DNA from: an uncultured Gemmatimonadales bacterium
Lineage (GTDB): Bacteria > Gemmatimonadota > Gemmatimonadetes > Gemmatimonadales > GWC2-71-9
Assembly: GCA_963779755.1 (NCBI GenBank)
Contig: CAVZZO010000003.1
Coordinates: forward strand, 352,001 to 416,000
Length of the DNA: 64,000 nucleotides
Reading direction: 5' to 3'
This document shows positions 1-54,317 of this stretch, in pieces. Numbering within the stretch: position 1 is the stretch's first letter; each line of letters starts with the position of its first letter. The notes beneath the pieces were generated by a model, which worked only from the letters and a program-made list of their open reading frames with translations, searched no databases and had not been told where the DNA came from. Both the position numbers and the translations under genes were made by a program.

Positions 1-1648
1 CATCTCGCAGCCGATCAGCACCACACCTGCCCGGGGTCGGCCCTCCTGGCCCGTCCTTCTGGTCGCCATCTGGGCAGCCGGCGCGCTCATTCTGCTGGGC
101 CGTCTGGGCGTAGGCGGCTTGGTGGTGGCCCGGCTGGCGCGCCGGGCCACCCCGCTGGATGTGCCGGAATGGACTCGTCCACTGGTGGAGGGAGCCGACC
201 GGCTGGGGCTGCCTCGGCTTCCCGCGCTCCTGATGAGCCATCGGCTCCCGATGCCGTTCGCCTGCGGGCTGTTCCGTCCCACCATCATCCTGCCTGCCGG
301 CGCCGACGAATGGGACGACCGGCGGCGCCGCGCGGTGCTCTGTCATGAGCTGGCCCACCTCCGCCGGCTCGACCTGCCGGTGAGTCTGCTGGGCCAGATC
401 GCCTGCGCCGTGCATTGGTTCAATCCGCTGGTGTGGATGGCCGTGCGCCGGATGCGTATCGAGAGCGAGCGGGCCTGCGACGACCTGGTGCTGGGTGCCG
501 GCACCCGGCCCTCGGAGTATGCCGACCATCTGCTGCAGATCGTCTGCCGTTCCGCCCGTACCCGGCCCCCCGCCGTGGTTCTGCCCATGGCCCAGCGCCG
601 GGAATTCGAGGGACGTATGCTCGCCATTCTGGAGCGCGATGCGCGCCGCGAGCCGCTCACCCGGCGGCGCGCGGCCGGTCTCGCCGCGCTGACACTGGTC
701 CTGGTGCTGCCGCTGGCCGCGCTGGCCCCCGCGACGGGATCCTCCGCCGCGAAGCTGCCGGAGCCGGCGTCCCGGAACACTTCAGAGACGGCGGAACCCC
801 TCCCCACGACCACCAACCGGGAGGTGCGGGTGGACTCGTCCACCTCTACCCCCAGCCATCGGGAGCAGGAGACCCGGACGGTGACCTCCAACTCAGCCGC
901 GCCGGCACCAACGCCCGCTCCCGCGCCTCAGCCCTGGGACGGGAAGATTCGCAACCTGGCCGCCGCCGCAGCCGACACGAACGATCCACGGGTGGTAACG
1001 GGGCTGCTCCACGCGCTGGAAGATTCCGTACCCGCGGTCCGCGCCAATGCGGCCTTTGCCCTGGGGGAACTCGCGATCCGGTCCGCCGCGGGCCCCATGG
1101 CAGCCCGCCTCCAGCGGGAATCGAACAGCCAGGTCCGCGACCGGATCATCTGGGCCCTGGGCCAGTTGGAAAGCCGCGACGCCGTGCCCGCGCTGCAGCA
1201 AGTCATTCAGCGGGATTCCAGCGAAGAGCTTCGCAGCAAAGCCGTGTGGGCCCTGGGGCAGATTCAAGATCCCGCGGCCCTCCCCGCCCTGATCACCGCC
1301 CTGGGCGATCGCTCGCCGGAGGTGCGCGGGAAGGCAGCCTGGGCGCTGGGCCAGCTGGAGCCTCGAACCGCCCCGAAGGAGCTGATCGCCGCGTTGCGGG
1401 ATGGCTCCGCCGAGGTGCGGCGGCAGGCCGCGTGGGCGCTGGGCCAGATCGAGGACACCGCGGCGGTCGCCGGACTCATGACCACGCTGGGCGACAGCGT
1501 GACCAAAGTCCGGCGCACGGCGCTCTGGGCACTGGGCCAGATGGAGAGCCCAGTCACCCAGCCGGCCCTGCTCCGGGCACTCAACGATCCGGACCCTGAA
1601 ATCCGCGCGGCCGCAGCCCACGCTCTGGGTAACACCGGCGGCAACTGA
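1..1648 (+). CDS. BlaR1/M56-family metallopeptidase with C-terminal HEAT repeats (5' end outside window)
   Basis: HELAH zinc motif, HWFNPLVW...ESERACDD M56 signature, repeated AxWALGQ HEAT units; frame is open upstream of the 119 ORF start. Confidence 0.85.
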   Translation, partial: ISQPISTTPARGRPSWPVLLVAIWAAGALILLGRLGVGGLVVARLARRATPLDVPEWTRPLVEGADRLGLPRLPALLMSHRLPMPFACGLFRPTIILPAGADEWDDRRRRAVLCHELAHLRRLDLPVSLLGQIACAVHWFNPLVWMAVRRMRIESERACDDLVLGAGTRPSEYADHLLQIVCRSARTRPPAVVLPMAQRREFEGRMLAILERDARREPLTRRRAAGLAALTLVLVLPLAALAPATGSSAAKLPEPASRNTSETAEPLPTTTNREVRVDSSTSTPSHREQETRTVTSNSAAPAPTPAPAPQPWDGKIRNLAAAAADTNDPRVVTGLLHALEDSVPAVRANAAFALGELAIRSAAGPMAARLQRESNSQVRDRIIWALGQLESRDAVPALQQVIQRDSSEELRSKAVWALGQIQDPAALPALITALGDRSPEVRGKAAWALGQLEPRTAPKELIAALRDGSAEVRRQAAWALGQIEDTAAVAGLMTTLGDSVTKVRRTALWALGQMESPVTQPALLRALNDPDPEIRAAAAHALGNTGGN

Positions 1649-1729
1649 CGGCTGAGAAACGGGACAACCCGTTCCTCACAGAGTATTCCCGTATTCCGTG
1701 ATGCTGAAATTTCAGCACCATCAGAGGAG

Positions 1730-3298
1730 ATGCTCATAATGCTCACCGCATCCAACAACTTCTTCGCGCTCACCGCAGGGCTGGCCCTCATGTGCAGCCT
1801 GCGGTCCGGCGGCACGGCAGATCAGGCTACCGTGCGCGCTCCCCGGAGCGACGAGGCGGAGCTGGCGCGTACCGTCCTGGCCGCCTCGCGCGGAGCTCCT
1901 CCCCTGCTCTGCGCGCTGGCCACTCGTGCGGTGGAGTCCCGCTACGGCCGCTGGAGCGGGTTCCCCCCGCCCGCCGGCGGCTCCGATACCCTCCCTGCGG
2001 TACGCTGGGCGCTGAGCGACGATCCGGGCGCCGCTGCCCTACCGGTCCTGGTGGCGGCCCTGAATGACGAGGATCCCTGCGCCCGCGGCCTAGCCGCGCG
2101 GCTGATCTCCCGGTCGGAGGATCCCGCGGCCGCGGCCGGCATGCTGCGGGCGCTCTCCTCCTCCACGCCGGGAACCCGGGTCGCGGGAGCCGTGGCGCTG
2201 GGAATGGCGGAGGTCCCCGGTGCGTTGCAGCCGCTCCTCAACCGGCTGGGCGACGGCGACGCCGCCGTGCGCGCCACCGCCGCCTGGGCGTTGGGAAACT
2301 ACGATTCCCTCCGTGCCGGACCGGCGCTGCGGATGCTTCTCCGGGATCCTGTCCCGATGGTGCGAGGCGCCGGGGCTCGCGCGCTGGGACGGCTGGAGGA
2401 CACCACGGCGGTCGAGGCGCTGGCGCGGCTGCTGCGCTCGGACTCGGATGAGCGCGTGCGTATCGCCGCCGCGGAGGCTCTGGGGCAGATCGAATCGCGC
2501 GCCGCGGTGGGGGCGCTGACGGACGCCCTCGCCGACCGGAGTGCGGATGTTCGCCGCACCTCCGCCTGGGCTCTGGGGCAGATCGAATCGCCCGATGGGG
2601 TGCCGGGACTGATCCACGCCCTGGACGATGCCGATCACGAGGTGCGCGAGACGGCGATCTGGGCGCTGGGCCAGATCGAAGACAAGACGGCGGTGCCGGC
2701 CCTCTCACAGCGGCTGCAGCGCGACAATTCGCCGACGGCGCGCAAGCAGGCGGCCTGGGCCCTGGGCCAGATCGAAGATCGGTCGGCGGCCGGCGCGCTG
2801 GGCCACGCGCTGCAGACCGACACCAATGCCGAGGTTCGCAAGACCGCCGCGTGGGCTCTGGGACAGATCGAAAGCAGAGATGCCGTTCCCGCGCTCTCCG
2901 CCGCCCTGCGAGACAGTTCGGCGCAGGTGCGGGCGACCTCCGCCTGGGCCCTGGGGCAGATCGAGCCGGATCACGCCCCCGACGGGCTGGTTCCCGCCTT
3001 GAAGGATGGCTCGGCCGATGTGCGCAAGAACGTCGCGTGGGCCCTCGGCCAGATCGAGGACCGCGGCACCATCCCCGCGCTCCGGGATGCGCTGAAAGAC
3101 TCCGATGGCGAGGTTCGCCGCACCGCGCTGTGGGCGCTCTCTCAGATGGACGACGACTCCGCACGGGAGATATTCGTCGACCAGCTCAAGAGCGATGACC
3201 CGCAAATCCGCGCGGCCGCTGCCCGGGCGCTGGGCCACGGCAGCGCCGGCCCGCGTCCCCGGCCGCATCCCCGGCCCCAGCCGCGTCCCTTCCCATGA
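1730..3298 (+). CDS. HEAT-repeat (PBS lyase-like) protein
   Basis: Many tandem VRxxAAWALGQIE repeats; exact start uncertain. Confidence 0.85.
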   Translation: MLIMLTASNNFFALTAGLALMCSLRSGGTADQATVRAPRSDEAELARTVLAASRGAPPLLCALATRAVESRYGRWSGFPPPAGGSDTLPAVRWALSDDPGAAALPVLVAALNDEDPCARGLAARLISRSEDPAAAAGMLRALSSSTPGTRVAGAVALGMAEVPGALQPLLNRLGDGDAAVRATAAWALGNYDSLRAGPALRMLLRDPVPMVRGAGARALGRLEDTTAVEALARLLRSDSDERVRIAAAEALGQIESRAAVGALTDALADRSADVRRTSAWALGQIESPDGVPGLIHALDDADHEVRETAIWALGQIEDKTAVPALSQRLQRDNSPTARKQAAWALGQIEDRSAAGALGHALQTDTNAEVRKTAAWALGQIESRDAVPALSAALRDSSAQVRATSAWALGQIEPDHAPDGLVPALKDGSADVRKNVAWALGQIEDRGTIPALRDALKDSDGEVRRTALWALSQMDDDSAREIFVDQLKSDDPQIRAAAARALGHGSAGPRPRPHPRPQPRPFP

Positions 3299-5037: not shown

Positions 5038-6546
5038 TTATCCTCGGCGGGTGCCGCCCAGAATGCCGCCCAGGATGCCGCGCATGATCTGGCGGCCGAC
5101 CTGGCTGCCGACGGTGCGCGCAGCCTGCTTGGCCATGGCCTCCACCATGCCCTGGCGGCGGCCGGTGCCCCAGAGAAGACTGTTGAGGCCGCCGCCCTGG
5201 TGTGGCTGGGATTTCCCCGCTTCCCCCCTGGGTCCCTGAGGGGCCGGGGCGGGAGCGGGCGCCCCTTCCGCGGCCGCCGCCCGGCGGCTCAGGATTTCAT
5301 AGGCCGATTCGCGGTTAACCGCGGTGTCGTACTTCCCTCCCACCGGGCTGCGTGAGCGTATGGCGGCACGTTCTTCGGTCGTGATCGACCCCATGCGGCA
5401 GCGCGGCGGACACATCAGGGTACGCTCGACCGGGAGTGGTATCCCCTTCTCCTGCAGGGTGGATACGAGGGCCTCCCCCACCCCGAGTTCCGCGATGACC
5501 CTGGCGACGTCGACCCCCGGATTGGCGGCGAAGGTCTCTGCGGCAGTACGGACCGCTTTCTGGTCTCGCGGGGTATAGGCCCGCAGGGCATGCTGGATCC
5601 GGTTGCCGAGCTGTCCCAGGATCTCGTTCGGTACGTCGTCCGGGAACTGGGAACAGAAATACACCCCTACGCCCTTGGAGCGGATGATGCGCACTACCTG
5701 CTCCACCCGCTGGCGCAGGGCGGGGGGCGCATCATCGAAGAGGAGATGTGCCTCATCGAAGATGAATATCATCTTCGGCCGTTCCAGGTCCCCGACTTCC
5801 GGGAGGTTCTCGAACAGCTCGGAGAGCAGCCACAGGAGAAAGCTGGAGTAGAGGTGCGGCTGGAGAACAAGCTGGTCGGCCGCGAGAATGCTGATGACGC
5901 CGCGGCCCGAGAGATCGGTGCGCATCAGGTCGGCCAGGTCCAGCGCCGGCTCGCCGAAGATGCCTTCCCCACCCTCCCGATCGAGGCCCAGCAGGGCGCG
6001 CTGGATGGCCCCGACGGACGCGGTGCTGACCAGGCCATAGCGGGTGCTGATCTCCTGTCGGTGCTCGGCCACGAAGCCCAGCAGGGCGCGGAGGTCGTCG
6101 AGATCGAGGAGCAGCAGACCCTGGTCGTCCGCCAGCTTGAAGCCGATCTCCAGCACGCCCTCCTGGGTGCCGTTGAGCTCGAGGATCCGGCTCAGCAGGG
6201 CCGGCCCCATTTCGCTCACCGTGGTTCGGACCGGGTGCCCCAGTTTGCCGAACAGGTCCCAGAAGAGGACGGGACTTCCTTCCGGGGCATACCCCTCAAT
6301 ACCAATCTGCTGCACCCGCTGCTGGATCTTCTCGTTGGCGGCCCCGGGCATGGCCAGTCCCGCGACATCGCCTTTCACGTCGGCCATGAAGACCGGAACC
6401 CCGAGCCGCGACAAGCCCTCGGCCAACAACAGCAGCGAGACGGTCTTGCCCGTTCCGGTGGCACCGGCCACCAGGCCGTGCCGGTTGGCATACCGGGCCA
6501 GCAGGTAGACCTGGTGTTCACCGTTGCCGAGGAGGATCTCGTTCAC
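5038..6546 (-). CDS. HerA-like ATPase, DUF853/YjgR family
   Basis: NRHGLVAGATGTGKT Walker A, FIFDEAHLLF Walker B, C-terminal RGILGGILG. Confidence 0.9.
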   Translation of the reverse strand: MNEILLGNGEHQVYLLARYANRHGLVAGATGTGKTVSLLLLAEGLSRLGVPVFMADVKGDVAGLAMPGAANEKIQQRVQQIGIEGYAPEGSPVLFWDLFGKLGHPVRTTVSEMGPALLSRILELNGTQEGVLEIGFKLADDQGLLLLDLDDLRALLGFVAEHRQEISTRYGLVSTASVGAIQRALLGLDREGGEGIFGEPALDLADLMRTDLSGRGVISILAADQLVLQPHLYSSFLLWLLSELFENLPEVGDLERPKMIFIFDEAHLLFDDAPPALRQRVEQVVRIIRSKGVGVYFCSQFPDDVPNEILGQLGNRIQHALRAYTPRDQKAVRTAAETFAANPGVDVARVIAELGVGEALVSTLQEKGIPLPVERTLMCPPRCRMGSITTEERAAIRSRSPVGGKYDTAVNRESAYEILSRRAAAAEGAPAPAPAPQGPRGEAGKSQPHQGGGLNSLLWGTGRRQGMVEAMAKQAARTVGSQVGRQIMRGILGGILGGTRRG

Positions 6547-8403: not shown

Positions 8404-9093
8404 TCAGCCCTTGTCGCTACCGATGACTCGATAGATCCCGGCTCCGAGCACACCGCCAATGACCGGAGCCACCCAGAACAGCCACAGCTGCGAAATCGCC
8501 CAACCGCCGGCGAACACCGCCACGCCGGTGCTGCGCGCGGGGTTCACGGAAGTGTTGGTAACCGGGATGCTGATCAAGTGGATCAGGGTAAGGCACAACC
8601 CGATTGCGATCGGCGCGAAACCCTGTGGCGCCCGTTTGTCGGTAGCGCCAAGAATGACGAAGAGAAACATCATCGTCATGACCACCTCTGTTATCAGGGC
8701 GGCCAGCAGGCTGTACCCGCCTGGCGAATGGGCGCCGTACCCGTTCGACGCGAAGCCTGCAGATAGATCGAAACCTGCCTTACCGCTGGCGATGAGATAC
8801 AGAACACCACCCGCCGCGATGCCACCCGCGACCTGTGCAACGATGTAGGGTAGCAACTCCGTCGCCGGGAACCTACCACCGGCCCAGAGACCTACCGACA
8901 CCGCCGGGTTGAGGTGGCAGCCGGAGATGTGCCCGATGGCGAAGGCCATGGTGAGCAGGGTCAGGCCGAATGCCAGTGCGACGCCCAGCAGGCCGATGCC
9001 GACATTAGGGAACGCGGCGGCCAGAATGGCACTGCCGCACCCGCCAAGCACCAGCCAGAACGTTCCGATCAACTCCGCGCCATACCGTTTCAT
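8404..9093 (-). CDS. aqpZ: Aquaporin Z
   Basis: [12 protein letters not shown] and [13 protein letters not shown] motifs; [11 protein letters not shown] loop typical of AqpZ. Confidence 0.95.
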
Positions 9094-13642: not shown

Positions 13643-14014
13643 TCATCGAGTGAGGTTGGCAATGTTCTTCAGTACCGCGCCCCACGCGACCCCGAGCAAG
13701 CCGGCTAACATCAGGGCATACAGTTCAAGCATAAGCGCCCAGCGGCCCACTTGACGCGTCTTCCAGGAATACCATGAAATGGCAAATGGAAGGAGCAGGT
13801 ACAGGAAGAACCCCGCATCCATTGCCCTGGTCAGGCCATGTCGCCGAACATTAGGTGCTAGCCACGTTACCACGGCGAGAGGCGGCACTATGGCAAGGAT
13901 GAGCCACATTCCTTGCGACGGCGGAACCCCCAGGAGGGAATAGAGCATGCCGAACAGCAGACACGAGCCGGTGATGATGTACAGCTTGTACCGGGGTGTC
14001 TCGACCTCGTCCAT
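13643..14014 (-). CDS. Hypothetical membrane protein (cassette)
   Basis: Four hydrophobic segments, GGAGGAG RBS, fills the inter-attC space. Confidence 0.7.
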   Translation of the reverse strand: MDEVETPRYKLYIITGSCLLFGMLYSLLGVPPSQGMWLILAIVPPLAVVTWLAPNVRRHGLTRAMDAGFFLYLLLPFAISWYSWKTRQVGRWALMLELYALMLAGLLGVAWGAVLKNIANLTR

Positions 14015-14171
14015 TGCTCCTCCGTTCAGGCCGTCCGCCTAACGAAGTGCGCGTGTGCTGCGGCGCGAACCCAACTTCCTTCACAAACTTACGGTTCCGC
14101 AGCGCGGCCGCTAGATGCCGGGGAGAGGCACTACGCGGCCGCACCGCCGGCCCTGTCAGCTCGACGCGCTC

Positions 14172-14708
14172 ATGTACGCGGATCCTTTCGGGTTGAGAGG
14201 CTGTCCAGATGTTACGGGAACTGACCCGAATAGTCTAGACGATTGTCCGGAGCGATCCCCAGGTTACTATGCTGCTCGCATTGCCAAGGGTGAAGGTAGC
14301 AGGGTGTTGAATACGGCTTTGGGAGTACTCGCCACGATGGGTCAGGTGCTGGCGGAGCATACGACGGGGAGTGTCACAGTCGGTGAAGAAAGTATCGAGA
14401 CGGATGCCTATGGACTCACGGGTGGACTGGAAAATGGCAATACCAGAGTAGTGCAACGAGTCGGACTTCCCCAGATAGGAGGAAGCCTCGGATTCACTGT
14501 TGGGAATCCGGGTACTGGCGCCGTTGATTTTGGATGGAGCAAGCATCTCGGCATCACGATTCATACCGTGCCCAGTCCTGAAGGCGGCGGAATCTCTGGA
14601 ATCACCTTCAATCTCGGAATCGGCACACCGACCCTTATCGGCATCCAGGACCGGACAGTCGTGTCGCAACCGATTCCCAAATGCCTCGTCTCATGTGCAC
14701 ATGAGTAG
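14172..14708 (+). CDS. Orphan Rhs-type toxin C-terminal tip A (Gly-rich)
   Basis: Begins MYADPFGL, matching the YxDPxGL motif that ends the Rhs core; followed by an overlapping small gene. Confidence 0.7.
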   Translation: MYADPFGLRGCPDVTGTDPNSLDDCPERSPGYYAARIAKGEGSRVLNTALGVLATMGQVLAEHTTGSVTVGEESIETDAYGLTGGLENGNTRVVQRVGLPQIGGSLGFTVGNPGTGAVDFGWSKHLGITIHTVPSPEGGGISGITFNLGIGTPTLIGIQDRTVVSQPIPKCLVSCAHE

Positions 14709-14937
14709 TCTACTTGGGTGGTTTCTGGTTGCCGGGGGAATTTTCTACATCGGCGCTGCTGCGTTCGACTGGATTGGGCGAGCAGCAAGTGTGCCCATCG
14801 TGAAGTGGCTTATCCTGCCGCTCCGCATAGGTGAAATACGCTGGGTTGGTGGTGGCAATCGACGATTTGCCGCTACCCTCGGCATCTTTCTTCTAGTCAT
14901 CGGCTTGCTACTCGTCTTGTTCGGTCCTGAACGATAG
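14701..14937 (+). CDS. Putative two-TM immunity protein (Imm17-like)
   Basis: MSSLLGWFLVAGGIFYIGAAAFDW...; overlaps toxin stop; Imm17 resemblance is from recollection and needs an HMM check. Confidence 0.6.
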   Translation: MSSLLGWFLVAGGIFYIGAAAFDWIGRAASVPIVKWLILPLRIGEIRWVGGGNRRFAATLGIFLLVIGLLLVLFGPER

Positions 14938-14945
14938 GCTGCCGA

Positions 14946-15435
14946 AGGAGCCGGCCTCGTCTAGCCTGGGGCGCTCGCAGTGCCTCCGGGTTGTCGGGCC
15001 TGAGCTCCGAGGGGTCGGGTCTAGTTAGGAGCCTCGCGGGCTGCCGCGCGTGGCGGACCTCGGCCGGCGGAAAAGGAAAGTGGTGGGGGCCCCACGAGTT
15101 CAGCGGAACCCATCGGCTCCAGACCTGCCGCGAGCCGGCTCCCTCGTCGGGCGTCATGCGCCCACGGGAGCAGACGGGGTCACCCCACCGGCTCCAAGGT
15201 GCTACCCGGTCCTTCGATTGTCAAAGAGCGCCGCGTTCCGCGTGCCGGCGGGATCCTGGCACCACCCTCATAGGTCGTTGAGGCTCGGGGCCTCCCACAT
15301 CTTCATGGATGCTCTCCGATCCGCGGCCGGGCGGCCAGCAACACTCTGTGCGCGGAGCTCACCGAAGACGCCGGCGGCTCAAGGCAAATAGTGGGCGGCC
15401 CGGCCGCGCACGCGCGGCTCCCCACCGATCTCCGG
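14946..15435. ncRNA. Candidate bridge/seekRNA-encoding non-coding region of the IS110 element (copies at 23197-23687 and 29671-30156)
   Basis: Conserved, hairpin-rich, no credible ORF, downstream of the recombinase as in IS1111-type elements; contains GTCTAGTTA (15019-15027) matching the insertion junction. Confidence 0.55.
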
Positions 15436-16704
15436 CTATTCGCTCACCACCGGCTCTGCCCGATGCCGCTGCGCCTCCCAGCGCTCCCGCTCGAACGGCT
15501 GGCCCGAGTGGAGTACGGCCAGGAGGAGCGGCACCAGCTTGCGCGCCACCGCACAGACCGCCTTGGTCCGGAGCCCGCCATTGCGGGCCAGCAGGGCCTG
15601 ATAGTACGCGCGGTAGAGCCCCCGGGGCTGGCACCAGCGGCCGCCCAGGAGGAACAGCTGGCGGCGGAGCAGCGGCCGGCCCCGTTTGGACTGTTTGCGC
15701 CGCCCCTGCACGCTGCCGCTGGAACGCTCGACCAGATTCATGCCTGCGAGTTTCAGCACCTGGCGGGGATGAGTGAAGCGCTCCGGAGTGCCCAGCTCGG
15801 CCACAATCGTAGCCGCACAGGTGGCACTCACCTCGGGAATGGTGGTCAGCGCCTTGGCGGCGGGACACTGCTCCACCAAGGCGGCGATCTGCTGGTTCAA
15901 CACCGCGAGCTGCTCCCGCAGGAGGTCCCAGCGGGCCAGGAGCTGCTGGATCTCCAACCGCCGCTCGGGAGCGGCGTCGGCCAGGGCGACACTGGTGCGG
16001 GCGGACTCGCGCAGGACGTGGAGCCGCTCCGGGCCCACGTGGCCCCGCGAGACGGACCGCGCCAGGCGCGTCACCGCGGCCGGGGCGGCCGCCAGGAAGT
16101 CCTGCGGCAGCGGCCAACGCGCCAGCAGGGCGCGCGGGGTGGGCTTGCGCACCTGCGAGAAGTGCGTCAGGAACTCGGGCCAGGCCAGGTCGAGCAGGCT
16201 CTGGAGACGGTTCTTGAACCGGGTTTCCTCGACGGTTAACCGGTGCCGGTGGGTGGTGAGCAGCCGCAGCTCGAGATACGGGGGCTGCAGCGCCGGATAT
16301 CCCACGAAGATCCCCAGGCTCACCAGCTTGCAGATCTCGGCGGCATCCTTCGCGTCCGTCTTGTTGGGGCTGTTATCCTCCAGTTCCTTGGCCCGCTTGG
16401 TGTGGGCCGGCAGGATATTGACCAGCGCATAGCCGCGCGCCCGCAGGCACTCGGCAAACGTGAAGCCGTGATGGCCGGCGAACTCCAGCCCCACCAGCAT
16501 CTGTCCGGGCCGGATGCCGGGAAACCAGGCCGTCAACTGCGCCGCGGCGGCCTCGAAGCCCGCGCGGCTCACCGGCACCCGGACCGGCTTCGTGCGGCGC
16601 CCATCGGGGCCCTGAGCAACCAGCACGTGGACCCGCTTCGCGGTATCCACGCCTACGTGAACGGGGAACGTGCGGGTATAGGCAGACTTTTCGTCGGGGG
16701 TCAT
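15436..16704 (-). CDS. IS110-family recombinase/transposase
   Basis: DEDD residues in HVGVDTAK, GLEFAG and KTDAKDA; C-terminal SSGS serine motif and AVARKL; ATG at 16704 has GGAG RBS (ORF track extends to 16731). Confidence 0.95.
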   Translation of the reverse strand: MTPDEKSAYTRTFPVHVGVDTAKRVHVLVAQGPDGRRTKPVRVPVSRAGFEAAAAQLTAWFPGIRPGQMLVGLEFAGHHGFTFAECLRARGYALVNILPAHTKRAKELEDNSPNKTDAKDAAEICKLVSLGIFVGYPALQPPYLELRLLTTHRHRLTVEETRFKNRLQSLLDLAWPEFLTHFSQVRKPTPRALLARWPLPQDFLAAAPAAVTRLARSVSRGHVGPERLHVLRESARTSVALADAAPERRLEIQQLLARWDLLREQLAVLNQQIAALVEQCPAAKALTTIPEVSATCAATIVAELGTPERFTHPRQVLKLAGMNLVERSSGSVQGRRKQSKRGRPLLRRQLFLLGGRWCQPRGLYRAYYQALLARNGGLRTKAVCAVARKLVPLLLAVLHSGQPFERERWEAQRHRAEPVVSE

Positions 16705-16800
16705 GGCGCGGCTCCGGGTGGAGGGAATCACAGGAGTCGCGGAAGGAGCTACGGGCCGCGCAGCGGCGTCAAGCGGGTATAGATGTCTAGTTAAGCGACT

Positions 16801-17107
16801 ATGCTCGGGTTGCGTACTTCACGGGGAGGTCAAGACTCCGCTCTCTTCTGCGGGGAGGCTCGACTCGAGGCCGGGGTGCTCCTGCGGCGACTCCGGCGGG
16901 GCGAGAAGCTCGGGCTCCCGCACTCCCGACCGATACCGGGACTCGGCCGGCGGTGTCAAGAGTTGCGGATTCCCGACCAAGGACGCCACCTGGCGGATCA
17001 TCTATCGGCTCGATCGAGACGCAATCGTGATTGTGGAGGTCTTTGCGAAGAGCCAAGCGACTCCACAACAGGTCCTGGCCACGTGCGCGCGGCGGCCGAA
17101 CCACTAG
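16801..17107 (+). pseudogene. RelE/HigB (Gp49-like) toxin, frameshifted
   Basis: LHGEVKTP, ARLEAGVLLRRL...PHSRP and WRIIYRLDRDAIVIVEVFAK lie in different frames. Confidence 0.7.
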
Positions 17108-17136
17108 GATGCGGTGAGCCGCGGGGAGGATTGATC

Positions 17137-17277
17137 ATGAACAAACGGAAGCAGAAGCGGCTGGAAGCTGCCGGCTGGCGGGTGGGAACGACCACCGACT
17201 TCCTCGACCTCTCCCCTGAGGAGGCCGCCTTGGTGGAGCTGCGCCTGAAGCTGAGCGCGGCCCTCCGTCGAATCTGA
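17137..17277 (+). pseudogene. Truncated HigA/XRE antitoxin
   Basis: MNKRKQKRLEAAGWRVG...FLDLSPEE N-terminus ends before the HTH. Confidence 0.65.
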
Positions 17278-17446
17278 GTGGGTTGCTGGCTAACGAAGTG
17301 CGCGTGTGCTGCGGCGCGAACCTTCAGGTCTTCACAAACCTACGCGTCCTTATCCGTGCCACTAGGAGCCCGAGAGACTAGAGGAGACCGGCGCGACCGG
17401 CCCCGCAGAACGAAGCGCTAGTGAGGTGGCCCACTGCGGCCGCTCA

Positions 17447-17629
17447 CTACACTTCGTACGAGATCGGAAGGGCATGCAAGCACTCGGGGCAGAAATAGAT
17501 GCGGCGGGCGACGACAACCGAGCGGGCGCGCTTGTAGAAGATTCTGTCGAGCGAGGCATCACACGAGGGACATAGCGGGACCAGATCGCCCCTCTCCTCA
17601 TACGTGATTTTGGAATAGCGCTCCATCAT
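17447..17629 (-). CDS. Small zinc-ribbon protein (cassette)
   Basis: CPSC...CPEC pairs in 60 aa. Confidence 0.55.
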   Translation of the reverse strand: MMERYSKITYEERGDLVPLCPSCDASLDRIFYKRARSVVVARRIYFCPECLHALPISYEV

Positions 17630-22265: not shown

Positions 22266-22447
22266 GGGGGCTCCTCCTTGGAGCCTGAAATATAGCGGCG
22301 ACCGGTCCCTGACGCTTAACGAAGTGCGCGTGTGCTGCGGCGCGAACCCGCGCTCCTTCACAAACCTACGTTTCCACAGCGCGACAGCTAGATCCCCGGG
22401 AGATGCGCCGCCAGCCCGCGCGACCGGCCCGTCAGAACGACGCGCTC

Positions 22448-22903
22448 ATGTACGCGGATCCTTTCGGGCTGCTTGCCCAGGATTGTTGTATCGAAACGGG
22501 GGATTGGCGAAAGGATAACCTGCTTCACCCTGCTGTCTACAGCGGCAAGAGAGACAACCCGATGCTGGGAGTAGCTGTGGGTCTCCTGGCCGTTGCAGGT
22601 GGGGCCGAACTGGCTGCTCCCAGGTTATTTGCCGCGGCCACCGCTGCTCTTCCTAAGGTACCGTTTGAGAAATTCCAGGACTGGGGACGAAATGTTGTCC
22701 AATGGGGCCGTGGGGCAGCGGGGGCAATTCAGCGGGTTTCTGAAGTGACGGCCGAGCAGGCCTCTAAATTGGATCCACAGAAAGTGAAGATGGCTCGCGA
22801 CTTCTACCAGAAAGCTGTTGATGCTGGCCGAGGGGGAGCCGCCGCACCCGAACGAGTAAAGCTGATGGAACGCATTTTAGACCTGCAGCAGAGAACCCAT
22901 TAG
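22448..22903 (+). CDS. Orphan Rhs-type toxin C-terminal tip B (DUF4951-like C-terminus)
   Basis: Begins MYADPFGL, hydrophobic middle, WGRGAAGA...RDFY...RVKLM; DUF4951 resemblance is from recollection. Confidence 0.7.
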   Translation: MYADPFGLLAQDCCIETGDWRKDNLLHPAVYSGKRDNPMLGVAVGLLAVAGGAELAAPRLFAAATAALPKVPFEKFQDWGRNVVQWGRGAAGAIQRVSEVTAEQASKLDPQKVKMARDFYQKAVDAGRGGAAAPERVKLMERILDLQQRTH

Positions 22904-22949
22904 TGGCTCGGTCCGGTCTATTCGAGCATTGCAACACGGAGGAAGAGCC

Positions 22950-23198
22950 ATGCTGGAAGCAGCGGTCACACTTCGGCTTACGAATAGATGCGAAACTGCG
23001 CGGAAGCTCGTGATTGAGCCATGGACCACCGAGTTTCGACTGCAACCTGGGCACACTTACGACTTGGTGATATCAGGGGACCTTGGCCTCCCCTTAGAGG
23101 TTGAGTTCGAGGACGACGAACTAACCGTATACACTTTCGATTCCGCCAATGCCTCCTTCAAGATTTCCGAAGGCGGGGCTGAACTTAAACCACTGTAG
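22950..23198 (+). CDS. Putative immunity protein B
   Basis: GGAGG RBS, small acidic protein after the toxin, IEPW motif shared with 40756-41010. Confidence 0.65.
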   Translation: MLEAAVTLRLTNRCETARKLVIEPWTTEFRLQPGHTYDLVISGDLGLPLEVEFEDDELTVYTFDSANASFKISEGGAELKPL

Positions 23199-23687
23199 GA
23201 GCCCGGCCCTGTCTAGCCTGGGGCGCTCGGGGCGCCTCCGGGTTGTCGGGCCTGAACTCCGAGGGGTCGGGTCTAGTTAGGAGCCTCGCGGGCTGCCGCG
23301 CGTGGCGGACCTCGGCCGGCGGAAAAGGAAAGTGGTGGGGGCCCCACGAGTTCAGCGGAACCCATCGGCTCCAGACCTGCCGCGAGCCGGCTCCCTCGTC
23401 GGGCGTCATGCGCCCACGGGAGCAGACGGGGTCACCCCACCGGCTCCAAGGTGCTACCCGGTCCTTCGATTGTCAAAGAGCGCCGCGTTCCGCGTGCCGG
23501 CGGGATCCTGGCACCACCCTCATAGGTCGTTGAGGCTCGGGGCCTCCCACATCTTCATGGATGCTCTCCGATCCGCGGCCGGGCGGCCAGCCATACTCTG
23601 TGCGCGGAACTCACCGAAGACGCCGGCGGCTCAAGGCAAATAGAGGGCGGCCCGGCCGCGCACGCGCGGCTCCCCCCCGGTCTCCGA

Positions 23688-24956
23688 CTATTCGATCACC
23701 ACCGGCTCTGCGTGATGCCGCTGGGTCTCCCAGCGCTCCCGGTCGAACGGCTGGCCCGACTGGAGCACGGCCAGGAGGAGCGGCACCAGCTTGCGGGCCA
23801 CCGCGCAGACCGCCTTGGTCCGGAGCCCCCCGTTACGGGCGAGCAGGGCCTGATAGTACGCGCGGTAGAGCCCCCGGGGCTGGCACCAGCGGCCGCCCAG
23901 GAGGAACAGCTGGCGGCGGAGCAGCGGCCGGCCCCGTTTGGACTGTTTGCGCCGCCCCTGCACGCTGCCGCTGGAACGCTCGACCAGATTCATGCCTGCG
24001 AGTTTCAGCACCTGGCGGGGATGAGTGAAGCGCTCCGGAGTGCCCAGCTCGGCCACAATCGTAGCCGCACAGGTGGCACTCACCTCGGGAATGGTGGTCA
24101 GCGCCTTGGCGGCGGGACACTGCTCCACCAAGGCGGCGATCTGCTGGTTCAACACCGCGAGCTGCTCCCGCAGGAGGTCCCAGCGGGCCAGGAGCTGCTG
24201 GATCTCCAACCGCCGCTCGGGAGCGGCGTCGGCCAGGGCGACACTGGTGCGGGCGGACTCGCGCAGGACGTGGAGCCGCTCCGGGCCCACGTGGCCCCGC
24301 GAGACGGACCGCGCCAGGCGCGTCACCGCGGCCGGGGCGGCCGCCAGGAAGTCCTGCGGCAGCGGCCAACGCGCCAGCAGGGCGCGCGGGGTGGGCTTGC
24401 GCACCTGCGAGAAGTGCGTCAGGAACTCGGGCCAGGCCAGGTCGAGCAGGCTCTGGAGACGGTTCTTGAACCGGGTTTCCTCGACGGTTAACCGGTGCCG
24501 GTGGGTGGTGAGCAGCCGCAGCTCGAGATACGGGGGCTGCAGCGCCGGATACCCCACGAAGATCCCCAGGCTCACCAGCTTGCAGATCTCGGCGGCATCC
24601 TTCGCGTCCGTCTTGTTGGGGCTGTTATCCTCCAGTTCCTTGGCCCGCTTGGTGTGGGCCGGCAGGATATTGACCAGCGCATAGCCGCGCGCCCGCAGGC
24701 ACTCGGCAAACGTGAAGCCGTGATGGCCGGCGAACTCCAGCCCCACCAGCATCTGTCCGGGCCGGACGCCGGGAAACCAGGCCGTCAACTGCGCCGCGGC
24801 GGCCTCGAAGCCTGCGCGGCTCACCGGCACTCGGACCGGCTTCGTCCGCCGGCCATCGGGGCCCTGGGCGACCAGGACGTGAACGCGCTTGGCGGTGTCC
24901 ACACCCACGTGGACGGGAAACCAGCGGGCGTAGGCGGACTTCTCATCGGGGGTCAT
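23688..24956 (-). CDS. IS110-family recombinase/transposase
   Basis: Near-identical to 15436-16704 with variant termini. Confidence 0.95.
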   Translation of the reverse strand: MTPDEKSAYARWFPVHVGVDTAKRVHVLVAQGPDGRRTKPVRVPVSRAGFEAAAAQLTAWFPGVRPGQMLVGLEFAGHHGFTFAECLRARGYALVNILPAHTKRAKELEDNSPNKTDAKDAAEICKLVSLGIFVGYPALQPPYLELRLLTTHRHRLTVEETRFKNRLQSLLDLAWPEFLTHFSQVRKPTPRALLARWPLPQDFLAAAPAAVTRLARSVSRGHVGPERLHVLRESARTSVALADAAPERRLEIQQLLARWDLLREQLAVLNQQIAALVEQCPAAKALTTIPEVSATCAATIVAELGTPERFTHPRQVLKLAGMNLVERSSGSVQGRRKQSKRGRPLLRRQLFLLGGRWCQPRGLYRAYYQALLARNGGLRTKAVCAVARKLVPLLLAVLQSGQPFDRERWETQRHHAEPVVIE

Positions 24957-25065
24957 AGCGCGGCTCCGGGTGGAAGGAATCACAGGAGTCGCGGAAGGAG
25001 CTACGGGCCGCGCCGCGGCGTCAAGCGGGTATAGATGTCTAGTTAGGCTTCACTGCGCATTCAAC

Positions 25066-27611: not shown

Positions 27612-27825
27612 GTTATATGGCGAAACGCTCTCGGCCTCAACCGGAACCGGGGCCAAATGCCTGGGCCGCCTCACGGAGACCGGGGCGCCGGCACCTGTTG
27701 GAACTTCTGCCGCGCTTTGATGCATGGCGGCCCGAACAGCGCCCTCAAGGAACTTGGGCGGCCACCACCAGATGCTGTTGTACATCAAAAGAGAACGAGC
27801 AGTCCAGCCCGTTCGACCATATAAC
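27612..27825 (-). other. ORF-less cassette family C (copies 41627-41840, 51256-51469, 51596-51809)
   Basis: ~210 bp between attC sites, ends GTTATATGG and CCATATAAC, no ORF stopping within the cassette. Confidence 0.8.
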
Positions 27826-27952
27826 GAAGTGCGCGTGTGCTGCAGCGCGATCCCTCAGGTTCTCACAAACCTACGCTTCCACAGCCGCGGCGCCAGGAGG
27901 CCCGGGCGAGGGCCGGCGGTCCGCGCGACCGGCCTGCAGAACGACGCGCTTG

Positions 27953-28357
27953 TTAGGTTGCTGCAGGATGCCCGCTGCGCCGGCGCCATTCAAAGACGAC
28001 GACCAGGGCGAGAACGAGCAGAATGGGAGCCGTCAGTACCCCTGGGGTATAGCCTCCTTGCTGCCAGGACCACAACGGATGACCGACGCCGTTGATGACT
28101 TCGATGGTCACCCAGAACGTGACAATCGCTCCCGTCCCACGCCAGCCGCGCCTCACGGGCCAGATAAAGCACCAAACCCCAAAAGCAACGAGGGCGACAT
28201 TGAGGACCGCAAACCCGACCTGCCGGTTGCTCGACACTAAGCCGGTGAGAATGCGGGCTGGCGGGAAGGAGTCGTAGAGCTTGCCCAGATATTCCTCGAC
28301 CGAGTGCGCTGCCTGGCCAAGTACCAGTGCTCCAAACGCCAAGTGAAAGCGAGACAT
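27953..28357 (-). CDS. HXXEE-domain membrane protein (cassette)
   Basis: HSVEE motif and YTPGVLTA; stop in attC TAA. Confidence 0.85.
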   Translation of the reverse strand: MSRFHLAFGALVLGQAAHSVEEYLGKLYDSFPPARILTGLVSSNRQVGFAVLNVALVAFGVWCFIWPVRRGWRGTGAIVTFWVTIEVINGVGHPLWSWQQGGYTPGVLTAPILLVLALVVVFEWRRRSGHPAAT

Positions 28358-28797: not shown

Positions 28798-28922
28798 GAA
28801 GTGCGCGTGTGCTGCAGCGCGATCCCTCAGGATTTCACAAACTTACGCTTCCACAGCCGCGCCGCCAGGAGGCCGGAGCATGGGCCCGCGGCCCGCGCGA
28901 CGGCCTGCAGAACGACGCGCTC

Positions 28923-29377
28923 ATGTACGCGGATCCTTTCGGGCTGCCTGCCCAGGATTGTTGTATCGAAACGGGGGATTGGCGAAAGGATAACCTGCTT
29001 CACCCTGCTGTCTACAGCGGCAAGAGAGACAACCCGATGCTGGGAGTAGCTGTGGGTCTCCTGGCCGTTGCAGGTGGGGCCGAACTGGCTGCTCCCAGGT
29101 TATTTGCCGCGGCCACCGCTGCTCTTCCTAAGGTACCGTTTGAGAAATTCCAGGACTGGGGACGAAATGTTGTCCAATGGGGCCGTGGGGCAGCGGGGGC
29201 AATTCAGCGGGTTTCTGAAGTGACGGCGAGCAGGCCTCTAAATTGGATCCACAGAAAGTGAAGATGGCTCGCGACTTCTACCAGAAAGCTGTTGATGCTG
29301 GCCGAGGGGGAGCCGCCGCACCCGAACGAGTAAAGCTGATGGAACGCATTTTAGACCTGCAGCAGAGAACCCATTAG
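28923..29377 (+). pseudogene. Toxin tip B, frameshifted copy
   Basis: Same as 22448-22903 apart from a 1-nt deletion near 29227 and a substitution near the start. Confidence 0.75.
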
Positions 29378-29423
29378 TGGCTCGGTCCGGTCTATTCGAG
29401 CATTGCAACACGGAGGAAGAGCC

Positions 29424-29672
29424 ATGCTGGAAGCAGCGGTCACACTTCGGCTTACGAATAGATGCGAAACTGCGCGGAAGCTCGTGATTGAGCCATGGAC
29501 CACCGAGTTTCGACTGCAACCTGGGCACACTTACGACTTGGTGATATCAGGGGACCTTGGCCTCCCCTTAGAGGTTGAGTTCGAGGACGACGAACTAACC
29601 GTATACACTTTCGATTCCGCCAATGCCTCCTTCAAGATTTCCGAAGGCGGGGCTGAACTTAAACCACTGTAG
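29424..29672 (+). CDS. Putative immunity protein B (copy)
   Basis: Identical protein to 22950-23198. Confidence 0.65.
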   Translation: MLEAAVTLRLTNRCETARKLVIEPWTTEFRLQPGHTYDLVISGDLGLPLEVEFEDDELTVYTFDSANASFKISEGGAELKPL

Positions 29673-30156
29673 GAGCCCGGCCCTGTCTAGCCGGGGCGCT
29701 CGGGGCGCCTCCGGGTTGTCGGGCCTGAACTCCGAGGGGTTGGGTCTAGTTAGGAGCCTCGCGGGCTGCCGCGCGTGGCGGACCTCGGCCGGCGGAAAAG
29801 GAAAGTGGTGGGGGCCCCACGAGTTCAGCGGAACCCATCGGCTCCAGACCTGCCGCGAGCCGGCTCCCTCGTCGGGCGTATGCGCCCACGGGAGCAGACG
29901 GGGTCACCCCACCGGCTCCAAGGTGCTACCGGTCCTTCGATTGTCAAAGAGCGCCGCGTTCCGCGTGCCGGCGGGATCCTGGCACCACCCTCATAGGTCG
30001 TTGAGGCTCGGGGCCTCCCACATCTTCATGGATGCTCTCCGATCGCGGCCGGGCGGCCAGCAACACTCTGTGCGCGGAGCTCACCGAAGACGCCGGCGGC
30101 TCAAGGCAAATAGAGGGCGGCCTGGCCGCGCACGCGCGGCTCCCACCGATCTCCGG

Positions 30157-31422
30157 CTATTCGCTCACCACCGGCTCTGCGTGATGCCGCTGCGCCTCCC
30201 AGCGCTCCCGCTCGAACGGCTGGCCCGAGTGGAGTACGGCCAGGAGGAGCGGCACCAGCTTGCGCGCCACCGCACAGACCGCCTTGGTCCGGAGCCCGCC
30301 ATTGCGGGCCAGCAGGGCCTGATAGTACGCGCGGTAGAGCCCCCGGGGCTGGCACCAGCGGCCGCCCAGGAGGAACAGCTGGCGGCGGAGCAGCGGCAGG
30401 CCCCGTTTGGACTGTTTGCGCCGCCCCTGCACGCTGCCGCTGGAACGCTCGACCAGATTCATGCCTGCGAGTTTCAGCACCTGGCGGGGATGAGTGAAGC
30501 GCTCCGGAGTGCCCAGCTCGGCCACAATCGTAGCCGCACAGGTGGCACTCACCTCGGGAATGGTGGTCAGCGCCTTGGCGGCGGGACACTGCTCCACCAA
30601 GGCGGCGATCTGCTGGTTCAACACCGCGAGCTGCTCCCGCAGGAGGTCCCAGCGGGCCAGGAGCTGCTGGATCTCCAACCGCCGCTCGGGAGCGGCGTCG
30701 GCCAGGGCGACACTGGTGCGGGCGGACTCGCGCAGGACGTGGAGCCGCTCCGGGCCCACGTGGCCCCGCGAGACGGACCGCGCCAGGCGCGTCACCGCGG
30801 CCGGGGCGGCTGCCAGGAAGTCCTGCGGCAGCGGCCAACGCGCCAGCAGGGCGCGCGGGGTGGGCTTGCGCACCTGCGAGAAGTGCGTCAGGAACTCGGG
30901 CCAGGCCAGGTCGAGCAGGCTCTGGAGACGGTTCTTGAACCGGGTTTCCTCGACGGTTAACCGGTGCGGTGGGTGGTGAGCAGCCGCAGCTCGAGATACG
31001 GGGGCTGCAGCGCCGGATATCCCACGAAGATCCCCAGGCTCACCAGCTTGCAGATCTCGGCGGCATCCTTCGCGTTCGTCTTGTTGGGGCTGTTATCCTC
31101 CAGTTCCTTGGCCCGCTTGGTGTGGGCCGGCAGGATATTGACCAGCGCATAGCCGCGCGCCGCAGGCACTCGGCAAACGTGAAGCCGTGATGGCCGGCGA
31201 ACTCCAGCCCCACCAGCATCTGTCCGGGCCGGACGCCGGGAAACCAGGCCGTCAACTGCGCCGCGGCGGCCTCGAAGCCTGCGCGGCTCACCGGCACTCG
31301 GACCGGCTTCGTCGCCGGCCATCGGGGCCCTGGGCGACCAGGACGTGAACGCGCTTGGCGGTGTCCACACCCACGTGGACGGGAAACCAGCGGGCGTAGG
31401 CGGACTTCTCATCGGGGGTCAT
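30157..31422 (-). pseudogene. IS110 recombinase, frameshifted copy
   Basis: Homologous to the other two copies but split across frames. Confidence 0.85.
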
Positions 31423-31508
31423 AGCGCGGCTCCGGGTGGAAGGAATCACAGGAGTCGCGGAAGGAGCTACGGGCCGCGCCGCGGCGTCAAGCGGGTATAG
31501 ATGTCTTG

Positions 31509-34816: not shown

Positions 34817-34947
34817 TAACGAAGTGCGCGTGTGCTGCAGCGCGATCCCTCAGGTTCTCACAAACCTACGCTTCCACAGCCGCGGCGCCAGGAGGCCCGG
34901 GCGAGGGCCGGCGGTCCGCGCGACCGGCCTGCAGAACGACGCGCTTG

Positions 34948-35352
34948 TTAGGTTGCTGCAGGATGCCCGCTGCGCCGGCGCCATTCAAAGACGACGACCA
35001 GGGCGAGAACGAGCAGAATGGGAGCCGTCAGTACCCCTGGGGTATAGCCTCCTTGCTGCCAGGACCACAACGGATGACCGACGCCGTTGATGACTTCGAT
35101 GGTCACCCAGAACGTGACAATCGCTCCCGTCCCACGCCAGCCGCGCCTCACGGGCCAGATAAAGCACCAAACCCCAAAAGCAACGAGGGCGACATTGAGG
35201 ACCGCAAACCCGACCTGCCGGTTGCTCGACACTAAGCCGGTGAGAATGCGGGCTGGCGGGAAGGAGTCGTAGAGCTTGCCCAGATATTCCTCGACCGAGT
35301 GCGCTGCCTGGCCAAGTACCAGTGCTCCAAACGCCAAGTGAAAGCGAGACAT
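34948..35352 (-). CDS. HXXEE-domain protein, copy 2
   Basis: Identical protein to 27953-28357. Confidence 0.85.
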   Translation of the reverse strand: MSRFHLAFGALVLGQAAHSVEEYLGKLYDSFPPARILTGLVSSNRQVGFAVLNVALVAFGVWCFIWPVRRGWRGTGAIVTFWVTIEVINGVGHPLWSWQQGGYTPGVLTAPILLVLALVVVFEWRRRSGHPAAT

Positions 35353-36817: not shown

Positions 36818-37222
36818 TTAGGTTGCTGCAGGATGCCCGCTGCGCCGGCGCCATTCAAAGACGACGACCAGGGCGAGAACGAGCAGAATGGGAGCCGTCA
36901 GTACCCCTGGGGTATAGCCTCCTTGCTGCCAGGACCACAACGGATGACCGACGCCGTTGATGACTTCGATGGTCACCCAGAACGTGACAATCGCTCCCGT
37001 CCACGCCAGCCGCGCCTCACGGGCCAGATAAAGCACAAAACCCCAAAAGCAACGAGGGCGACATTGAGGACCGCAAACCCGACCTGCCGGTTGCTCGACA
37101 CTAAGCCGGTGAGAATGCGGGCTGGCGGGAAGGAGTCGTAGAGCTTGCCCAGATATTCCTCGACCGAGTGCGCTGCCTGGCCAAGTACCAGTGCTCCAAA
37201 CGCCAAGTGAAAGCGAGACATG
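36818..37222 (-). pseudogene. HXXEE-domain protein, copy 3, frameshifted
   Basis: Split into ORFs 36818-37036 and 36973-37233. Confidence 0.75.
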
Positions 37223-54136: not shown

Positions 54137-54317
54137 GCGCCAACCTATAACGAGGCAGGGCAAGCCTCGGCCTGATTGGAGCGCAGCCGGGCACGGAAAA
54201 GCGCGGGGCAGCTCGGGAGGGGGGATTCAGCGGGTCCCTGCGCCGTCTTCCCGCCTTCCCGCCTTCCCGCCTACCTTTGGATCACACCATTGCCAGGTCC
54301 CGCGCCCGGAGGTCGTC

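Follow-up and report, generated by a model that had tools for sequence, protein, structure and literature searches.

In a 64,000-nt stretch of DNA from an uncultured Gemmatimonadales bacterium (contig CAVZZO010000003.1, positions 352,001 to 416,000; "the window"), three inserted units of about 2.6 kb, named E1, E2 and E3, end in a common 22-nt sequence that is read in frame into the gene of a toxin-like protein. On the strength of sequence comparison we consider it probable that these units are RNA-guided elements of the IS110 insertion sequence (IS) family whose right end is the junction between an Rhs core and its toxin tip, and that they carry a tip together with its immunity gene, so that insertion at such a junction would swap toxins in frame. 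Rhs and other polymorphic toxins diversify by swaps of their C-terminal tips, exchange with orphan modules by homologous recombination being the route generally accepted for this, and the motif DPxGL marks the boundary between Rhs core and C-terminal toxin.

As we propose it, the 22 nt would be the right end of a 2.6-kb RNA-guided element in which tip and immunity gene always lie between the guide-RNA region and this terminus. These 22 nt would be homologous to the last seven codons of the Rhs core (V-T/M-F/Y-x-D-P-F-G), with a CT or GT crossover dinucleotide 12 nt ahead of the GAT of DPxGL. Insertion at the same position of an rhs gene, at a boundary of the form ...AACAACCCG-(C/G)T-10 nt-GATCC, would fuse the carried tip in frame to the Rhs shell and push the resident tip past the left end, where it would become an orphan. 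A donor loop of the guide RNA would read the left end and the right-end CT-CATG; in the window, loop a would read the flank of integron attC sites, to which these copies would have been retargeted, and loop b would keep an Rhs-type guide pair. New tips may be acquired when an rhs boundary farther upstream takes the place of the right end as a surrogate, which would explain why two cargos share 21 identical nt followed by a synonymous change in a Leu codon.

Three insertions with a common end

The limits of the three units are established by comparison of occupied with empty attC sites and of the copies with one another (Table 1). All have the order left end, transposase, 490-nt non-coding region (NCR), immunity gene, toxin tip and right end, and they lie in three different attCs, two with the same cargo and one with another. 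Intact attC ends read ...GACGCGCT|TGTTAG with a single CT, and occupied ones read ...GCGCT-CATGTACGCGGATCC...[2.6 kb]...TATAGATGTCT-(A/T)GTTA, with CT on both sides of all three copies. This is the pattern of an IS110 insertion, i.e. one CT in the empty site, CT on both sides when it is occupied, and no terminal inverted repeats: neither terminal nor subterminal inverted repeats were found at the ends, the best end-to-end local alignment covers 8 nt with a mismatch, and there is no terminal pair among the 314 inverted repeats scanned.

In BLAST comparison E1 and E2 have in common, after the attC similarity, positions 14172-14192/22448-22468 and a 1.85-kb block (14946-16793 versus 23197-25045, 97% identity), from which it follows that cargo A (14193-14945) and cargo B (22469-23196) are alike in the end only. 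The right-hand limit of each element lies 5 nt inside the shared block. E2 and E3 are alike throughout (97.7-98.7% identity), with 25 substitutions and nine 1-nt deletions in E3 that break the toxin and transposase frames. All nine indels in E3 (28922-31506) are single-base deletions, for which decay or sequencing error are possible origins.

Table 1. Features of the three inserted units and their surroundings, with window coordinates except for the last seven rows, which are given in the coordinates of the related loci.
Feature	Position	Strand	Remarks
Element E1	14171-16788		limits from junction reading and BLAST
CT core dinucleotide of E1	14169..14170; second copy 16787-16788		attC/right-end junction
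E1 right-end terminus, 22 nt	14171..14192	+	reads as last 7 codons of Rhs core
Cargo A toxin tip ORF	14172..14708	+	178 aa, no RBS
Cargo A putative immunity gene	14701..14937	+	78 aa, hydrophobic; ATG overlaps toxin stop
E1 NCR	14946..15435	-	490 nt downstream of transposase; presumed bridge/seek RNA, three loops
Loop b	14951..15002	-	closing stem GGCCC/GGGCC, 5' strand GACAACCCGGA, apical hairpin, 3' strand CCAGGCTAGAC
Loop a 3' strand CCTAACTAGAC	15019..15029	-	attC flank CCTAACT, core AG and first two left-end bases; like a right target guide (RTG) plus handshake
Donor right guide-like (RDG-like) CTATGAG	15268..15274	-	complements right-end CT-CATG, one G-U
Donor left guide-like (LDG-like) block ATGAAGATGTGGG	15294..15306	-	AGATGT = sense of left-end terminus
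E1 IS110-family transposase	15436..16731	-	431 aa from GTG; relatives start at ATG 16704
E1 left end	16732..16788	-	terminus ...TATAGATGTCT (+ strand reading)
Element E2	22447-25040	-	
E2 right end	22447-22468		
Toxin B	22448-22903	+	
Immunity B	22950-23198	+	RBS GGAGGAAG
E2 NCR	23197-23687		
E2 transposase	23688-24983		
Element E3	28922-31506	-	copy of E2 in third attC
Tyrosine-recombinase (integrase-like) gene	53144-54163	-	PF00589 and PF13495
Distant IS110 clade, L001	5802-6529		
Distant IS110 clade, L007	3121-4041		
Distant IS110 clade, L015	10797-11960		
Distant IS110 clade, L019	11457-12647		
Distant IS110 clade, L020	5416-6582		
Distant IS110 clade, L036	8001-9212		
Distant IS110 clade, L037	8001-8474		
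ORF, open reading frame; RBS, ribosome-binding site; NCR, non-coding region.

The E1 transposase carries the DEDD, RuvC-like domain PF01548 (1.8e-24) and the Tnp domain PF02371 (1.5e-16), and matches the NCBIfam family NF033542 "IS110 family RNA-guided transposase" with 195.2 bits (cut-off 140). As in the IS1111-attC group, the longer non-coding part lies downstream of the transposase gene (490 nt versus 57-62 nt upstream). The subterminal inverted repeats that define IS1111 elements (11-13 bp long, extended by 7 bp and 3 bp; PMC11187229, available in part) were looked for in the ends of the window units and none were found. A tblastn search of 72,556 plasmids gave nothing above 33% identity to the transposase, which suggests that the element is not close to the plasmid-borne attC-targeting IS.

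The common end was delimited by exact matching and by direct reading. The 20-mer ATGTACGCGGATCCTTTCGG occurs three times on the + strand of the window (at 14172, 22448 and 28923) and in none of 100 shuffles. The full ends, starting at 14171, 22447 and 28922, read C-ATG TAC GCG GAT CCT TTC GGG, with 21-22 nt identical, and are translated as M-Y-A-D-P-F-G in frame with the tip ORF. The codon that follows is TTG in E1 and CTG in E2 and E3, Leu either way, and thus the protein motif DPFGL extends one codon past the nucleotide identity. Each of the three ATGs is preceded by 25 nt that belong to the attC (...cgacgcgctc) and contain neither a purine-rich run nor an RBS. A preliminary description, made from the letters of the window, had claimed that the terminal 22 nt are the sole sequence common to cargos A and B, that they read M-Y-A-D-P-F-G with divergence from the next Leu codon, and that no RBS precedes the three ATGs, all of which is confirmed here; its further proposal, that the end of the element and the Rhs core/tip boundary are one and the same site, read in frame into the cargo, gains support from homology reaching beyond the motif.

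This homology is seen at both the nucleotide and protein level. The window end CATGTACGCGGATCCTTTCGGG differs at 3 of 22 positions from the Rhs boundary CACGTTCACGGATCCTTTCGGG of two of the 37 related loci described below (L001 and L032), and GATCCTTTCGGGTTG is invariant before five different tips (E1, L001, L002, L006 and L032), with wobble positions varying in other subclades; the window 21-mer has no exact match among the 37 loci. The ATG of the end need not be a start codon, since it appears as the M variant of a position in the Rhs consensus V-(T/M)-(F/Y)-x-DPFGL. The same codon is ACG (Thr) in most relatives, and it is ATG within ...V-M-F-S-DPFGL in L008, where NNPVMFSDPFGL is attached to an Rhs core, and in L031 (AVMFSDPFGL). 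In the window ORFs no RHS or YD repeat family was matched and no YD-like motif occurs in the window; what these ORFs have is the layout of an Rhs boundary (xxxDPFGL, divergence past the L, a small ORF after it) and of an orphan tip, i.e. only seven core codons and no RBS ahead of them.

We regard it as very unlikely that MYADPFG is incidental, with the cargos being free-standing toxin-antitoxin-like genes that stabilise the IS and the end being kept for the recombinase. The presence of an ATG, the separate RBS of immunity B and a donor guide that appears to read CT-CATG are all compatible with such an origin, but the homology of the end to Rhs core ends, the missing RBS ahead of the ATG, the relatives in which the ATG codon is ACG and is fused to Rhs cores, and the retention of Leu through a synonymous codon speak against it.

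The tip of cargo A has no match in Pfam or NCBIfam, and the 78-aa ORF behind it, which matches DUF4395 below threshold only, is taken to be an immunity gene from its position. Cargo B consists of a 151-aa tip with a DUF4951 domain (PF16309, 32.7 bits, cut-off 27.3) and an 82-aa immunity ORF with an RBS of its own. A search of 1.84 billion representatives identified 16 proteins related to tip A, aligning from DPFGL on. Short ones start at or just ahead of this motif, and several keep the end of an Rhs core, ...RNRYYDP..GRFTQEDPIGLAGG.N.Y....NP..F.DPFGL, one of them being 1953 aa long; tip A relatives carry ...NNPVxFSDPFGL followed by a CP..DDCP..GYYA linker as in cargo A. The linker after DPFGL (CP...DDCP..GYYA..G.G; window 14196-14350, tip A residues 9-60) is common to the proteins P0008 and P0010-P0016, whose C-terminal domains are unrelated, and it resembles a pre-toxin module. 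No longer relatives of toxin B were found among 6837 candidates, which is weak evidence.

Toxin tips and rhs genes beside related transposases

Relatives of the transposase form at least 120 clusters in the protein collection, at 63-98% identity, and the few that are named belong to Gemmatimonadetes or Gemmatimonadales. Twenty-eight of these were aligned, and the alignment was used to retrieve 37 loci (L001-L037), of which 35 are Gemmatimonad-labelled, one is from Gammaproteobacteria and one from Chloroflexi; most are contigs of metagenome-assembled genomes (MAGs). They contain 41 transposase 3' ends, including those of a second clade at 37-42% identity. A tip was defined, with the transposase taken as the + strand, as an ORF on the minus strand, 100 aa or longer, that starts DP(F/Y/L/S/W)G(L/I/M/V) or DAFGL.

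The link between transposase, tip and rhs gene is established across the family. A reverse-strand tip ORF lies downstream of 35 of the 38 assessable transposase 3' ends, at 1148-2026 nt; the three ends without one all belong to transposase fragments, and three further contigs are too short to judge. No member without cargo was seen among the 41 ends. Pfam domains are matched in 8 of 55 tips scanned (PT-TG, DUF4329, DUF2380, Tox-REase-9, Ribonuclease, DUF4951 and a weak M91). In six cases the IS-proximal tip is continuous with a long upstream ORF, and RHS_repeat scores above cut-off in all six: the complete fused ORFs have 1591 aa (L001), 1564 aa (L002), 1630 aa (L021) and 1876 aa (L025), and those running off the sequence at least 1365 aa (L029, with a Ribonuclease domain as its tip) and at least 1073 aa (L019). 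The Rhs-associated core profile TIGR03696 ends at position 76 of 76 exactly on the L of DPFGL in all four relatives scanned. On the other side of the element, the left end adjoins a second tip at 21 junctions in 17 loci, reading ...TAGATGT(C/G)T | 10 nt | GATCC.TT.GG..., and it sits 12 nt before the Asp GAT codon of this tip in a single register that is always in frame. The preliminary description had asked whether rhs genes are followed by this non-coding region and an IS110 transposase, and the six RHS-repeat ORFs and 21 junctions answer this in the affirmative for the relatives. The fusions would have originated by in-frame insertion.

Four loci (L018, L024, L007 and L001) are chains of units in which the right end of one meets the left end of the next; the tandem right end|left end junctions of L001, L007 and L024 resemble circle junctions, yet are chromosomal. 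The left-end terminus ...TATAGATGTCT of the window units recurs in L001, L002, L006 and L032. In the second, distant clade, left ends of the form ...GGGGTCT| or ...GAGGTGT| adjoin xxxDPFGL tips in the same register, and these transposases also have downstream tips of their own (loci in Table 1).

Three relatives sit in targets other than rhs and still carry a tip. L006 is inserted in an attC (GGCCTAACT|AG...), L022 likewise occupies an attC, next to intact ones that read G(C/T)CTAAC|GCC.CGGCG, and the third is L031. The presence of cargo in attC sites (window, L006 and L022) and in a palindrome (L031) means that the tip lies inside the mobile unit. The palindrome of L031 is long and nested (6020-6116 and 8914-8935), with outer arms CCGTCCCGAACGCA and TGCGTTCGGGACGG.

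These targets bear on the possibility that the IS has no cargo and targets the Rhs core/tip boundary or attC, the tip being resident and the window units being a one-off co-mobilisation of an IS with an orphan tip. Guide-like segments do match Rhs boundary codons on both sides, the right-end junction in rhs loci is indistinguishable from native Rhs sequence, and single matches to a canonical boundary have been described for expanded IS110 loci (bioRxiv 10.64898/2026.08.14.744561, available in part). We nevertheless find this explanation improbable, given that the tip is within the inserted unit in every non-rhs target, with two different cargos in the window alone, that it keeps its regular distance in 35 of 38 elements across clades as distant as 37-42% identity, and that in NCR alignments an Rhs core is never joined straight to the NCR and leaves no remnant between NCR and immunity gene.

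Nor is it likely that tips are exchanged by homologous recombination of rhs core ends alone, with the IS110 copies as passengers. Orphan Rhs tips are able to recombine with the main gene (PMC3967940, available in part), and the identity of cargos A and B stops exactly where rhs paralogues usually diverge. However, 22 nt is very short for such recombination, the left end keeps one fixed nucleotide register in 21 tip junctions, guides match the flanks at those junctions, and the attC copies prove that tip and IS transposed as one unit. An assembly artefact, in which IS copies and rhs repeats have been misjoined in the MAGs and in the window, seems barely credible; the loci are mostly short MAG contigs and the nine single-base deletions of E3 are a pattern that sequencing error can give, but the same architecture and register recur in more than 30 contigs from many independent assemblies, some of 0.35-2.6 Mb, and the window copies have different flanks and 1-3% divergence.

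Two further observations concern the sequence around the boundary. In L002 (2663-2710), and also in L001, L006 and L032, the N-N-P codons (ACAACCCG) ahead of the crossover are reverse-complementary to the G-L-C codons (CGGGTTGT) that follow DPF, and the Rhs boundary is thus enclosed by an inverted repeat whose 8-bp arms are about 24 nt apart. In L018 (10612) and L036 (10850), which belong to the same MAG contig, a shared stretch of about 75 nt lies ahead of two separate tips; it closes with a 27-nt remnant of a core (GIAGGDPV), itself preceded by a stop codon, and may be an interior junction of composite cargo.

The non-coding region as a candidate guide RNA

The NCR has conserved blocks across 8 elements, and no Rfam family (E up to 1) was matched in 13900-17500. 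We read it against the scheme of the bridge RNA of IS621, where a stem, a left guide, a stem-loop and a right guide with handshake bases make up each loop. In that scheme the left half-site is paired on its bottom strand by the left guide, the core and right half-site are paired on their top strand by the right guide, and a GT core is tolerated (PMC11208158, available in part). Read in this way, the NCR resembles a bridge RNA that has a single donor loop plus two loops of target type and that would presumably be transcribed and used by the recombinase.

In the donor loop, the left-guide block ATGAAGATGTGGG has the family form (A/G)TGAAGATGTG(T), in the same sense as the left-end terminus. In 16 of 20 elements this block holds the best exact complement of the start of the left end, and left end and block vary together in L006 (ACCTCT/AGAGGT), L011 (ACACCT/AGGTGT) and L021 (ACGTCT/AGACGT); the matches are imperfect in L001, L014 and L025. 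The right-guide candidate CTATGAG is the 3' strand following a hairpin with a CCCGA loop. Here ATG-AG pairs with CATG ends (window, L008 and L031) and GTG-AG with CACG ends (L001, L002, L006 and L032), i.e. in seven of seven cases in the subclade, a tracking that amounts to one position and few independent changes. If the right end is recognised through CT-CATG, then of its 22 nt the donor loop would read no more than about six. The loop b 3' strand, or a second RTG-like strand in other elements, was also considered as the donor guide for the right end and dropped, as neither matches right ends.

Matches between loop a and the flanks are established for part of the family. The exact match spanning the junction has a length of 11 nt in E2 and 9 nt in E1, attained by 1 and 2 of 1000 shuffled flanks, respectively; such matches of at least 9 nt are present in 5 of 18 elements, each attained by no more than 25 of 1000 shuffles. 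In the window the match to the attC flank would explain the three attC insertions. The 9-11-nt matches of L014, L019 and L025 are found where the flank consists of Rhs boundary codons, and further matches are seen by eye in L010, L022 and L031, with an additional 11-nt match of L022 to the other attC half-site. The loop a strand of L031, CCCTCACAC, matches its palindromic flank.

The architecture of loop b, which resembles the TBL of IS621, is present in 16 elements, with an apical hairpin that is perfect in 12 and has one mismatch in E1. This hairpin has an NNCGA loop and varies in sequence (GGCGC/GCGCC, GAGCC/GGCTC, AGCC/GGCT and GGTC/GGCC), the closing stem shows a CG to UA change in two elements, and the 3' strand ends in (AG|AC)AC. 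The 5' strand tracks the type of Rhs core in nine of nine cases, ACAA(C/T)CCGG going with ...NNP (4/4) and GATCCGG with ...GDP (5/5), which is essentially one phylogenetic split. The 3' strand in the window, AGGCTAGACA, is that of the left-end junction of L001, and the window copies retain an Rhs-type loop b despite residing in attC.

With one target loop for attC and one for the Rhs junction, the same element could park modules and later splice them. We put forward tentatively, as a possibility to which we give somewhat less than even weight, that the clade is a dedicated RNA-programmed device for toxin exchange, with two target loops (attC and Rhs junction), parking in attC, later in-frame splicing, and uptake of tips through surrogate ends. 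The copies in attC would be silent; neither a core nor an RBS is present in them, and the cassette ORFs scanned are on the other strand. The preliminary description had suggested that tips are captured by cutting in rhs genes and that the attC copies act as a silent archive, and both may be the case.

Several results weigh against the proposal of a guided, in-frame toxin swap. There is no rhs gene within the 64-kb window, and the exact 19-mer of the window end has no match in 185,579 species genomes, so that the in-frame step is visible only in relatives, whose transposases are 37-74% identical to the window copy. On the question raised in the preliminary description, whether rhs boundary codons match the end, the L001/L032 boundary comes close. 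Most relatives are MAG contigs, in which repeats are open to misassembly, and the fusions could in principle come from an IS landing beside a resident tip. As to the guides, the exact match to the flank is of 6 nt or less in 10 of 18 elements, and the closest rhs-located relatives, L001 and L032, are unexplained by their own loop a. The partner read by loop b is ambiguous, because the right end contains GGGTTGT, to which ACAACCCG in loop b is likewise reverse-complementary. Folding of the 3' NCR gives no gain in stability over its shuffles (z = -0.56), RNAalifold returned the closing stem of loop b and not the proposed apical hairpin, and minimum free energy folds of long NCR pieces gave inconsistent structures.

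Integron context and relation to known systems

The GC-rich window contains a long array of integron cassettes, with 53 attC-type repeats from about 10034 onward and, beside the array, a tyrosine-recombinase gene as is characteristic of an integron. The usual integron layout is divergent; here the integrase-like gene is transcribed toward the array (10034-52500), which lies past its stop codon, and the scanned cassette ORFs are on the minus strand, the same as this gene. Cassettes of families D9, D11, D14 and D15 are found in 4-5 copies at 99-100% identity (27822-28121, 34817-35116, 36687-36986 and 38404-38703). Outside the array are two adjacent HEAT-repeat ORFs at 2-3298, the first with a BlaR1 M56 peptidase domain, with a 93-nt periodicity (family D20), and, beyond the integrase side, an IS630-like DDE_3 transposase ORF (56729-57796, minus strand).

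No literature on IS110 elements carrying Rhs tips was found, within a coverage that is thin for subscription journals. One preprint, in the part available, mentions IS110 transposases near WXG toxins and no more. In the preprint on expanded IS110 loci the terms Rhs, toxin, attC and integron have no occurrences, and in the portion of it that was accessible the cargo is mainly resistance genes, with no in-frame target fusion described (bioRxiv 10.64898/2026.08.14.744561). An RNA-guided recombinase clade with the swap point of a polymorphic toxin built into its own end, and the replacement tip and immunity gene aboard, would give a site-specific and mobile route for toxin replacement and for the building of orphan arrays, and would be a natural example of an IS110 element making an in-frame protein fusion. 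A bridge RNA with a second target loop would be of interest to recombinase engineers. As the same elements also use attC, integrons and polymorphic-toxin loci are tied together. Were the exchange device to be real, orphan-tip arrays in these bacteria would be built by transposition and not by homologous recombination, and a single vehicle would link integrons with polymorphic-toxin loci.

Some integrative elements, with att sites in tRNA or protein genes, duplicate the 3' part of their target, leaving the gene intact after insertion. The units described here differ from them in that the rebuilt 3' part would be a different toxin, which would change the function of the protein, and in that the recombinase is presumably RNA-guided. 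With Rhs orphan tips they have in common a DPxGL-initiated tip and immunity gene that lack a core and a start signal and follow a complete rhs gene (PMC3967940); whereas the known route for orphan tips is homologous recombination, here the gene of a presumably RNA-guided recombinase and element ends bound each module, and modules are also found in integron attC sites.

Among IS110 elements, the units share with IS621-type bridge-RNA recombinases the DEDD and Tnp domains, the CT core on both sides without duplication, and candidate guide loops composed of stem, 5' strand, stem-loop and 3' strand with opposite-strand matches and handshake bases (PMC11208158). They differ in having the presumed RNA region downstream of the transposase, apparently two target-type loops and not one, a toxin-immunity cargo between RNA region and right end, and a right end that is coding sequence of the target gene family. 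With the IS1111-attC group (ISPst6, ISKpn4 and ISPa25) they share insertion in one orientation at one end of attC and a longer non-coding region downstream of the transposase (PMC11187229), but they lack subterminal inverted repeats, carry cargo, have a transposase at most 33% identical to anything in the plasmid records compared, and have relatives that mostly target rhs and not attC. The expanded IS110 elements likewise carry passenger genes and have flexible half-match boundaries, a use of boundaries with which our proposal of a surrogate right end agrees (bioRxiv 10.64898/2026.08.14.744561).

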